Source: an uncultured Oscillospiraceae bacterium (GTDB lineage Bacteria > Bacillota > Clostridia > Christensenellales > CAG-314). Taken from it: a DNA stretch of 64,000 nucleotides. The notes under the pieces were generated by a model. It did not search any database, was not told the DNA's origin, and worked only from the letters and a program-made list of their open reading frames with translations. The stretch covers positions 125,591 to 189,590 of the forward strand of contig CAZHUH010000001.1 of the NCBI GenBank assembly GCA_964535505.1. The letters are read 5' to 3'. Shown one piece after another: positions 44,253 through 62,812 of this stretch (positions are counted from its first letter, which is position 1; every line of letters starts with the position of its first letter). A program made the translations under genes and the position numbers.

Positions 44253-44281
44253 AAAAAAGCCCAAAGCGCAATTCGCCTTGG
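44253..44281 (-). terminator. Intrinsic terminator after the tRNA cluster
   Basis: Minus strand CCAAGGCG-AATTG-CGCTTTGG (one mismatch) followed by GCTTTTTTGTT. Confidence 0.6.
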
Positions 44282-59811: not shown

Positions 59812-60393
59812 CTATTTCTTTTTCAATTCCTTTTGCCAACACCAATAGCACATATTTTCGTAGACTTCGTCGCCGCCGATAAGCACCACCGGTCCGTCAT
59901 CCACACACTTACCGTCCACAAAACGCGCATTAACAGTAGATTTTCTGCCGCAACGACACACGGATTTTATCTCTTGTAGCGAATCTGCCAATTCCACCAA
60001 GCGTTTGCTGCCTTCAAACAGTTTGCATTTGAAGTCGGTAAGCAATCCGTAGCACAAAACGGGCACGTATTGCGTAAGTTGTTTGAGTTGGTCTACTTGC
60101 TTTTCTGTGCAAAACTGCGCTTCATCCACAATGATGCAGTTGCACTCATGCAAAGCGTGGTATTTTTCGAACAAATCCAAAAAACTTTCGGTGGGTGAAA
60201 TAACTTCGCATTCGCACACTAACCCTATGCGCGAACGCACCTTGGGCGTTTCGCCGCTGTCGCCGCGATTGTCCACAGTAGGCTTCACAAGCAAAACTTT
60301 CATTCCCTTTTGCTCGTAGTTAAATTTGCACATAAGAGCTTGCGCCGATTTGCTGCTGCCCATTGTGCCGTATTTGAAATACAATCTGAACAT
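59812..60393 (-). CDS. tdk: Thymidine kinase
   Basis: 193 aa. P-loop GTMGSSKS and C-terminal Zn ribbon (CRCG...CYWC). Confidence 0.95.
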   Translation of the reverse strand: MFRLYFKYGTMGSSKSAQALMCKFNYEQKGMKVLLVKPTVDNRGDSGETPKVRSRIGLVCECEVISPTESFLDLFEKYHALHECNCIIVDEAQFCTEKQVDQLKQLTQYVPVLCYGLLTDFKCKLFEGSKRLVELADSLQEIKSVCRCGRKSTVNARFVDGKCVDDGPVVLIGGDEVYENMCYWCWQKELKKK

Positions 60394-60462: not shown

Positions 60463-62121
60463 TTAATACAATCCGTCAATCAGACCATCGTTATCAATGG
60501 TCATTTTTACTGCGTTAGGCACTTTTGAAAGCCCCGGCATCAACAATATATTTCCCGCAATAGCCACCAAAAAACCTGCGCCGCCGCGATATTCCACGTC
60601 ACGAATTTTAAGGGTAAAGCCTTTCGGCGCGCCCAAAAGCGTCGCATCATCGGAAAAACTGTATTGCGTTTTAGCAATTACCACCGGCAATTTGCTTATA
60701 TTCAATGAGGAAAGTTTTTCCAAACTGTCTAACGCCTTTTCGGAAAACTCAACATCTGCGGCACCGTAAATTTTTGTGGCAATTTTGCGAATTTTTTCTT
60801 TCACACTATCGCTATCGTCGTAAGCAAAAGAAAATTGAGAGTTATCCGCCGTATCACAAAGTTCCTTCACGCACAAAGCCAGTTGTTTGGCGCCTCTGCC
60901 GCCTTTGCCCCACACATCGCAACAAACGGCTTTTACGCCAATTTGCTCAACAGCACGCTTTATAGCGTTAAGTTCGCGCTTTGTATCGGCGGTAAAACGA
61001 TTTATCGCCACCACAACGGGCAATTTATAAACATTTTTGATATTAGAAACATGTCGCAACAAATTGCACATTCCTGTTTTCAATGCCGACAAATTTTCTT
61101 CCGAAAGATTGTCTTTCGAGGCACCGCCGTGCAATTTCAACGCACGCACCGTTGCCACCACGACAACTGCATTTGGCACCAAATTTGCCATGCGGCATTT
61201 TACGTCCAAAAACTTTTCCGCACCCAAATCGGCGCCGAATCCCGCTTCCGTTACCGTGTAATCGGCAAAAGTCATCGCAAGTTTTGTCGCTTGAACGCTG
61301 TTGCAGCCGTGCGCGATATTTGCAAAGGGACCGCAATGTACAAATGCCGGCGTGCCGCCAATGGTTTGCACCAAATTGGGTTTCAGTGCATCTTTCAGTA
61401 AAATTGCCATGGCGTTTTCCGCCTGCAAATCTTTGGCGAACACAGGTTTGTTGTCAAACGTGTAAGCTACCAAGATGTTTCCGAGACGATTTTTCAAATC
61501 ATCGATATCTTCCGCCAAAGTTAAAACCGCCATCACTTCGCTTGCCGCAGTGATGTTGAATTTTTCAGCATGCGGAATGCTGTCTTTCACGCCGCTGTTG
61601 ACGATCACCCCACGCAATGCTCTGTCGTTTACGTCCATCGTGCGGTTGAAAACCACCTTTTCTGGGTCGATATTCAGCAGATTTCCTTGGAAAATGCTAT
61701 TGTCGATAAGCGCGCACAACAGATTGTTTGCCGAAGTTATTGCGTGAAAATCCCCCGTGAAGTGCAAATTAATGTCTTCCATTGGCAAAATTTGAGAGTA
61801 TCCACCGCCGGTTGCACCGCCTTTTATGCCAAAAACGGGACCAAGCGACGGCTCACGCAATGCCAAACAAGTTTTTGCCCCCACAAGGTTAAGTCCATCG
61901 GCAAGCCCTATAGAGACGGTTGTTTTGCCTTCGCCCGCGGCTGTTGGGTTAATCGCTGTAACAAGCACCAGTTTAGCTCCGCTTTTGGGGTTTGGTTTTG
62001 TTGAAACCTTTGCCTTAAAATTTCCGTAAAGTTCCAAAGAGTTTTTTTGTATGCCGATTTTTTTCGCAATATCGGCGATGTTGCGCAATTTGCATTGCCT
62101 TGCAATTTCAATATCAGTCAT
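60463..62121 (-). CDS. fhs: Formate--tetrahydrofolate ligase
   Basis: PTAAGEGKTT motif and full-length FTHFS pattern. Start moved to ATG 62121 (MTDIEIARQ) after a GGGGGTGG SD. Confidence 0.97.
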   Translation of the reverse strand: MTDIEIARQCKLRNIADIAKKIGIQKNSLELYGNFKAKVSTKPNPKSGAKLVLVTAINPTAAGEGKTTVSIGLADGLNLVGAKTCLALREPSLGPVFGIKGGATGGGYSQILPMEDINLHFTGDFHAITSANNLLCALIDNSIFQGNLLNIDPEKVVFNRTMDVNDRALRGVIVNSGVKDSIPHAEKFNITAASEVMAVLTLAEDIDDLKNRLGNILVAYTFDNKPVFAKDLQAENAMAILLKDALKPNLVQTIGGTPAFVHCGPFANIAHGCNSVQATKLAMTFADYTVTEAGFGADLGAEKFLDVKCRMANLVPNAVVVVATVRALKLHGGASKDNLSEENLSALKTGMCNLLRHVSNIKNVYKLPVVVAINRFTADTKRELNAIKRAVEQIGVKAVCCDVWGKGGRGAKQLALCVKELCDTADNSQFSFAYDDSDSVKEKIRKIATKIYGAADVEFSEKALDSLEKLSSLNISKLPVVIAKTQYSFSDDATLLGAPKGFTLKIRDVEYRGGAGFLVAIAGNILLMPGLSKVPNAVKMTIDNDGLIDGLY

Positions 62122-62232
62122 TTTCCACCCCCAAAAAATTTGCAAAACAAATTTTGCCATAGCGCAAAACGTGCAAGTGAAATTTTCAAACAAACTTTGT
62201 CACAAGCAAAACACATACACACAAAATTTGCT

Positions 62233-62281
62233 AAAAAACGCCCGCTACCGCACTTATATCATTTTTCGCGGCGCCAGGCGT
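62233..62281 (-). terminator. Intrinsic terminator inside the fhs 5' UTR (attenuator)
   Basis: Minus strand ACGCCTGGCGCCGC...GCGGTAGCGGGCGT followed by TTTTTT. Its 5' arm overlaps an alternative hairpin GGC(C)GTG-GTCAAAG-CACGCC (62277-62296). Confidence 0.6.
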
Positions 62282-62338
62282 GCTTTGACCACGGCCAACT
62301 GCATTTTACGAAGATAGCCTTTTGTTTCCGTTACCTAA

Positions 62339-62367
62339 ATCATACCAAATTCCCATTCAATTTGCAA
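62339..62367 (-). promoter_or_regulatory. Sigma-A promoter of fhs
   Basis: Minus strand TTGCAA-17 nt-(TGg)TATGAT, leaving a ~210-nt leader. Confidence 0.6.
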
Positions 62368-62455
62368 TCAAAAACATAAAGATTGTTGACGATATTTGAA
62401 ATAAATTGTTGGATAAAAAAATGATTAACAAAAAAGAAAAGTTGCACAAAAACTG

Positions 62456-62484
62456 TTGCTTTTTTTTTCGCTCTTTGGTAAAAT
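62456..62484 (+). promoter_or_regulatory. Sigma-A promoter of tRNA-Cys
   Basis: TTGCTT-17 nt-(TGg)TAAAAT, about 12 nt before the tRNA 5' end. Confidence 0.6.
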
Positions 62485-62496
62485 AGATAGGCGGAT

Positions 62497-62570
62497 GGCA
62501 CCATAGCCAAGTGGTAAGGCAGAGCTCTGCAAAAGCTTCACCCCCAGTCCGAGTCTGGGTGGTGCCTCCA
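62497..62570 (+). tRNA. tRNA-Cys (GCA), CCA encoded
   Basis: 74 nt. GGCACCATAGCCAAGTGGTAAGGC..., anticodon loop CTGCAAA, T-arm CCCAGTCCGAGTCTGGG. Confidence 0.95.
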
Positions 62571-62573
62571 AAA

Positions 62574-62610
62574 AATCCCGAATTGCTTTGTTGCAATTCG
62601 GGATTTTTTT
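62574..62610 (+). terminator. Strong intrinsic terminator after tRNA-Cys
   Basis: Perfect 13-bp stem AATCCCGAATTGC/GCAATTCGGGATT, 6-nt loop, then T7. Confidence 0.85.
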
Positions 62611-62812
62611 AAGGAAAAGGGCGGAGACTTTTTTCTGACCTTGTGAAAGAGTTGCAGATTTTGATATAAATAAGTACACGTTCAAATCGCACTCGACACA
62701 ACACAAATGTTCTCGCCATTCATTCAGACCAATTCAAATCTGTCAATTCGCGCTTAAATTGGTATTAAGCAGTTAAATCAACGTTTACCCATTTAAATAC
62801 TCATTACAGCTT

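Follow-up and report, generated by a model that had tools for sequence, protein, structure and literature searches.

The window, a stretch of 64,000 nucleotides from a 1.47-Mb assembly that represents an uncultured, spore-forming bacterium of the Clostridia, carries on its minus strand the genes fhs and tdk, which are probably co-transcribed, and a divergently oriented tRNA-Cys gene (features and coordinates are collected in the table below). The fhs-to-tdk gene order is also found in relatives, and the N-terminus of Fhs reads MTDIEIA in all of them; the Fhs of one congener carries the name Candidatus Fimimonas merdipullorum. Upstream of fhs, the first-pass annotation had recognized a good promoter (TTGCAA-17-TGgTATGAT), a leader of about 210 nt and, within this leader, an intrinsic terminator ending in U6 (62281-62233). 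All three stand up to scrutiny: a consensus scan of the fhs strand returns a single sigma-70-like site, namely TTGCAA-17-TATGAT with the TG, at that very position; the leader measures ~211 nt from the predicted start near 62332 to the ATG; and the hairpin is genuine by its sequence and its predicted stability.

Features of the fhs locus in the window, with identities to the sister lineage L111
Feature	Position	Strand	Identity to L111	Remarks
tdk, thymidine kinase	59812..60393	-		Pfam TK, E 3.4e-34; directly 3' of fhs
fhs, formate-tetrahydrofolate ligase, 552 aa	60463..62121	-		Pfam FTHFS, E 2.4e-246; ATG at 62121
Distal leader, variable, with ribosome-binding site GGGGGTGG (62132-62125)	62122..62232	-		Alignable with L111 over its last ~35 nt only
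Intrinsic-terminator-like hairpin and U6	62233..62281	-		RNAfold -20.2 kcal/mol
Terminator 5' arm	62268..62281	-	11/14	
Terminator loop, 16 nt, A-rich	62252..62267	-	8/16	Identity at the neutral rate
Terminator 3' arm	62238..62251	-		
T6 (U-tract)	62233..62238	-		
3' arm, U-tract and next bases		-	27/27	
Linker GUGGUCAAAGC	62282..62292	-	7/11	Holds most of the proposed antiterminator
Hairpin P1, GGCUAUCUUCGUAAAAUGCAGUUGGCC, 27 nt	62293..62319	-	23/27	-6.8 kcal/mol in the window, -6.1 in L111
Predicted transcription start (~62332) and unstructured A-rich 5' tail	62320..62332	-	8/18	Inferred from the -10 position; identity at about the neutral rate
fhs promoter, sigma-70-type, TTGCAA-17-TGgTATGAT	62339..62367	-	26/29	9/12 consensus matches plus TG extension
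Promoter element TTGCAA, followed by 17 nt	62362..62367	-		Consensus scan
Promoter element TG-n-TATGAT	62339..62347	-		Consensus scan
tRNA-Cys(GCA)	62497..62570	+	74/74	Divergent from fhs; conserved 5' flank adjoins the fhs promoter

The spacer and the far side of the tRNA gene show further features. Back-to-back with the fhs promoter lies a promoter-like site, TTGAAA-18-AATGAT (62396-62425, plus strand), a candidate promoter for tRNA-Cys; over the 129-nt spacer in which it sits, identity to L111 is 84% (108/129), well over the neutral 56%. Beyond the tRNA, a bidirectional terminator hairpin (62575-62612, CCCGAATTGC...GCAATTCGGG) with A- and T-runs at its flanks is common to tRNA-Cys on the plus strand and a gene for a Schlafen-type helicase on the minus strand. 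This hairpin is kept in L111, with changes mostly in the loop, and is the source of weak NsiR1 and mir-4477 matches in the Rfam search.

The terminator-like hairpin begins ~50 nt past the predicted start site, and RNAfold resolves the first 111 nt of the transcript into two hairpins, P1 and the terminator. The stem of the latter spans 14 positions, comprising 12 pairs and a 2x2 internal loop. It displays the sequence hallmarks of an intrinsic terminator, i.e., a G+C-rich hairpin with a U-tract directly after it on the transcribed strand. Its 16-nt loop is longer than usual, and a simple terminator scanner missed the hairpin because the loop limit of that scanner is 8 nt. We folded the 50 nt upstream of each run of at least six T across the whole genome (4401 runs): by stability the hairpin ranks 18th, placing it in the top 0.4%. 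Of the 2529 T-runs that fall within coding regions, which provide the null rate, five (0.2%) have a hairpin at least as stable; therefore, the terminator-like signal is real. The fold of the leader as a whole is not unusual (z = -1.3).

No second copy of the leader was found in its own genome, which speaks against a repeat or mobile element. The T(T/A)GCAAATT words of the leader are unremarkable: TTGCAA occurs 2486 times genome-wide, and TTGCAAAT 427 times versus a Markov expectation of 440. The genome-wide survey also brought up a handful of other strong signals of a hairpin with a T-run, at C7:18817, C22:14892 and C1:169848 (the last corresponding to about position 44258 of the window), all on the minus strand. 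By a crude calling of ORFs, these lie upstream of same-strand ORFs and not behind the end of a gene; they are possibly further leader terminators or small RNAs.

On two contigs from two Logan assemblies, L111 and L112, which encode an Fhs 95% identical to that of the window, the tRNA, promoter, P1 and terminator are all kept, and this block is 86% identical to the window. Homology between the window and L111 ends nine bases past the U-tract. From the terminator to fhs the distance is about 455-470 nt in L111 versus 111 nt in the window, and the last ~35 nt before the gene are again shared. As a neutral yardstick we took the four-fold sites of fhs, which are 56% identical (133/239) between the two. 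Against this background, P1, the linker, both arms and the U-tract with its flank are together identical at 65 of 76 positions (p=3e-8 versus neutral), and the identity of the terminator loop differs from that of the stem (Fisher p=0.009). The substitutions point in the same direction. Relative to the window, the stem in L111 has changed C-G to U.G, G.G to U.G and C.A to U-A, so that all three substitutions in the 5' arm keep or create pairs, and the L111 terminator has 14 uninterrupted pairs with a stability of -23.5 kcal/mol. Of the changes in P1, two replace a wobble by a Watson-Crick pair, whereas another two disrupt pairs at the ends of the helix.

The constrained stems, the free loop and the constrained P1 hence form the pattern of a functional hairpin RNA, and not that of recent ancestry alone. 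Synonymous divergence is even along fhs, with the codons adjacent to the element as diverged as those elsewhere, which speaks against recent recombination as the cause of the conservation. This argument for selection is a single pairwise comparison, as two lineages carry the element. At the level of these sequences, the promoter-to-terminator unit can be shown to be non-random and under purifying selection, and to be confined to the two sister lineages.

Between the terminator and fhs, L111 (745-1200) has ~350 nt more DNA than the window, apparently gained through one or several small insertions. A 16-nt sequence, GGGAGTACAGGGCTCG, is perfectly repeated there in direct orientation (927-942 and 1110-1125), alongside a second bidirectional hairpin of terminator-like form (1048-1069) and TTTATTTGyACAC words in loose repetition; neither a noteworthy ORF nor an Rfam match was found in L111:745-1200. 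Downstream of its terminator, L111 has a plausible promoter, TTGCGT-16-TATAAT, in addition to the second hairpin.

Across 46 congeneric species, about 300 genomes of the order and metagenome contigs, the element was found in the window and in L111/L112 only. BLAST against the 46 congeners returned nothing below E 0.02. A covariance model (R1) run on the ~300 genomes of the order produced two weak matches, both spurious: that in L219 lies between two minus-strand ORFs, overlaps the end of one of them and has a broken stem with no U-tract, and that in L220 is similarly weak. A scan of metagenome contigs for exact 18-mers yielded 81 matches, all by chance or unrelated. No further contig was retrieved when the Fhs sequence of the window was looked up exactly, and the 90% cluster of this protein holds two sequences only. 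An aptamer conserved across many taxa, by which a riboswitch is recognized, was thus not found in these genomes.

The promoter, in turn, has a wider range. About 20 relatives within the genus with a recognisable fhs promoter have TTGCnA-17-TGnTAnnnT directly upstream of fhs. Their fhs leaders measure 18-112 nt, are unrelated in sequence and contain no comparable terminator, the one hairpin seen being of -7.4 kcal/mol, in L016. Alignment from the tRNA to fhs identifies the promoter in the window as the orthologue of the fhs promoter of these relatives, with the -35 block GTTTTTnATTGCAAA aligning among the window, L111, L113 and L114. A separate observation concerns L198 (250-482) and L002, whose Fhs is 82-83% identical: in both, a hairpin and a T-run (GGCGTGTATTTTACGCC GTTTTTATTTGCTAAAT...TGGTATGAT) stand directly upstream of the -35 of the fhs promoter, and ~160 nt upstream L198 has another such block, similar to the first, with GTTTTTATTTGCTAAA at its end. 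The spacer between tRNA-Cys and fhs appears to be a hot spot of small duplications in this clade.

With regard to known RNA classes, the earlier reading that the leader matches none of them, and in particular neither ZTP nor THF, is borne out. A permissive covariance-model search of 61900-62800 against Rfam 15, in E-value mode, gives no match at E<=10 inside the leader; it returned only tRNA-Cys and noise, including a weak NsiR1 match that is the terminator of the tRNA. ZTP (RF01750) is absent from the genome itself and from the 24 congeners searched; it does score in five other genera of the order. THF-I (RF01831) has a single match in the genome, at C6:51904-51998 on the plus strand (46 bits, over the cut-off), on a contig other than that of fhs, and is present in nine of the 24 other congeners searched (in seven of them over the cut-off).

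A different fate befell the proposal of the first-pass annotation that the 5' arm of the terminator overlaps a competing hairpin, GGCCGUG/CACGCC (62296-62277), and that mutually exclusive structures of this kind indicate the expression platform of a riboswitch or attenuator. The competing hairpin is present in the sequence, but it is predicted at -5.8 versus -20.2 kcal/mol for the terminator and is not part of the minimum-free-energy fold of the nascent RNA. When the pairing of the upstream 50 nt with the 5' arm is compared with dinucleotide shuffles, these match or outdo the real sequence in 96% of cases for the window and in 72% for L111. Moreover, the linker is among the neutrally evolving parts, with a one-base shift between the two sequences, and the competing hairpin does not form in L111, the sole relative with the element. 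The annotation had itself named a lack of conservation of the alternative pairings in relatives as evidence against its proposal, and indeed they are not conserved. The predicted alternative pairing is no more than chance would offer to a G+C-rich arm of any kind, and we accordingly regard the riboswitch or attenuator platform as unsupported.

Other routes to regulated antitermination fare no better. A leader-peptide attenuator was rejected: a 16-codon ORF at the ATG at 62304 runs into the terminator, and its start is ACG in L111; conversely, a 30-codon TTG ORF of L111 carries a stop in the window. The best duplex for a pseudoknot between the loop and upstream sequence has -3.0 kcal/mol in the window and -4.9 in L111, with different bases involved, and 78% and 61% of shuffled loops, respectively, do as well. 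An antiterminator protein with a CAT_RBD domain was not found in the genome.

Taken together, the element is, as far as its sequence reveals, a young and lineage-restricted leader terminator or short RNA without the marks of a riboswitch. Our preferred account, to which we give a little less than an even chance, is that of a lineage-specific, promoter-proximal Rho-independent terminator, i.e., an attenuator, with fhs-tdk expressed via read-through and with no ligand-sensing antiterminator. To elaborate, the terminator would have arisen in the DNA that separates fhs from its ancestral promoter. From a start near 62332, the polymerase would synthesize first P1 and next the terminator hairpin and its U6. 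For most transcripts synthesis would stop at ~62233, giving a two-hairpin RNA of roughly 100 nt, and the fraction that reads through would continue into fhs-tdk. The extent of read-through would be set by the flaws of the terminator, namely its long loop and, in the window, the 2x2 internal loop, and a trans factor could set it as well; no antiterminator of the same RNA would control it in response to a ligand. We infer from the sequence where transcription starts, that it terminates in vivo and that fhs depends on read-through.

Several lines of evidence support such a read-through attenuator. The window has no other sigma-70-like promoter before fhs, and expression of fhs-tdk via read-through is thus the simplest possibility. 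Further support comes from the orthology of its promoter to the fhs promoters of the relatives, and from the conservation of the stem and P1, the pair-keeping substitutions and the end of homology at the U-tract.

The main rival is a stand-alone small RNA gene, whereby a ~100-nt trans-acting or protein-binding RNA is made from this promoter and fhs has its own promoter past the terminator. The conservation extends from the flank of the tRNA through the promoter to the end of the terminator and nine nucleotides further, with the DNA beyond turned over; the sequence of P1 is conserved beyond what pairing requires; and the element is restricted to a narrow lineage, as is typical of small RNAs. 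In L111, the ~455 nt, the candidate promoter and the other hairpin between the terminator and fhs would also fit an independent RNA gene better than a leader. For the window, however, a consensus scan and inspection by eye found no sigma-70-like site on the minus strand of the distal leader (62232-62122), and no alternative sigma promoters (H, E, F/G, K) were seen there by eye, with the proviso that the promoter prediction is crude and that a weak or alternative-sigma site might escape it. The only strong promoter is the very one that serves fhs in the relatives, and the RNA is without a known target or partner. On balance, we consider a stand-alone small RNA gene unlikely. A further possibility is a non-functional relic, i.e., a terminator fragment that was inserted or duplicated and is tolerated because it is leaky, with the likeness to L111 due to recent ancestry or recombination. 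The structural instability of the region, with large indels between the sister lineages, the 16-nt repeat around the extra DNA of L111, the duplicated hairpin units of L198 and the extreme youth and restriction of the element are all in keeping with it. Nevertheless, segments at the neutral rate (the loop and the 5' tail) and near-invariant ones (the 3' arm with the U-tract, and P1) alternate within 110 nt, the four-fold sites of fhs near the element are as diverged as those in the rest of the gene, and every substitution in the stem preserves or creates pairing; a relic is hence quite improbable.

[quoted passage not shown] In its favor are the conserved sequence of P1, the unusually long terminator loop in both lineages and the order of the elements, first a hairpin and then a terminator, which fits the verbal description of the fhsA motif (PMC11109978). 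However, beyond gene context, conserved P1 and long loop nothing specific speaks for a switch. In neither sequence does the antiterminator pairing rise above chance, and it is far weaker than the terminator and lost in L111; the pseudoknot between the loop and upstream sequence is not above shuffles, and its best pairings differ between the two. Only ~50 nt are available for an aptamer, of which the 5' tail and the linker drift neutrally. All other congeners examined lack the element, their fhs leaders being short and without a comparable terminator, and there is neither an Rfam match nor a CAT_RBD protein in the genome. We thus rate a regulated attenuator as having a slim chance, comparable to that of a relic. 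A long shot, and the least probable of these proposals, is a novel regulatory RNA of minimal size, made up of P1 and the long-looped terminator. It would have emerged during the last few percent of divergence and would respond to a one-carbon or nucleotide signal, either by itself or via a protein, and thereby set the read-through into fhs-tdk. If true, it would represent the de novo origin of an attenuator or small RNA from an existing housekeeping promoter.

Returning to the read-through attenuator and its small-RNA counterpart, should termination be confirmed, the locus would provide a dated example of the birth of a leader terminator or small RNA: the same fhs promoter is followed by a short, terminator-free leader in ~20 congeners versus a two-hairpin RNA kept by selection in the two sister lineages. 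This would be useful for studies on the origin of small RNAs and attenuators, even if its general importance is modest and no new riboswitch class is added. It also calls for caution, in that the ability of the 5' arm of a terminator to pair upstream is by itself not evidence of a switch.

Among described systems, the ZTP (pfl) and THF-I riboswitches are well known from the leaders of clostridial one-carbon genes, fhs among them, where they often work via an intrinsic terminator; the fhs leader of the window differs from them in having no covariance-model match at the locus. [quoted passage not shown] It lies upstream of a formate-THF ligase gene; in it, one hairpin precedes another, P2, which has intrinsic-terminator features, and it is an unvalidated candidate with 52 representatives (PMC11109978). 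The succession of P1 (62319-62293) and the terminator (62281-62233) upstream of fhs resembles it, a likeness drawn by verbal description only. The two differ in that the fhsA motif comes from another phylum and has 52 representatives as against two lineages for the present element. Moreover, its authors propose a pseudoknot between the terminator stem-loop and the hairpin before it (PMC11109978), and this pseudoknot is without a counterpart in the window or L111, where such pairing is at chance level. A broader parallel is offered by the short RNAs from premature termination in 5' leaders that Term-seq and the Staphylococcus aureus RNome brought to light, the cases documented in the latter stemming from riboswitch activity (PMC2965222). 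In contrast to those cases, the leader in the window shows no detectable sensor or alternative structure. The shared ground is the arrangement: a metabolic gene is immediately preceded by a promoter, a short structured RNA and an intrinsic terminator, so that the RNA made would be an attenuated leader and at the same time a potential small RNA.
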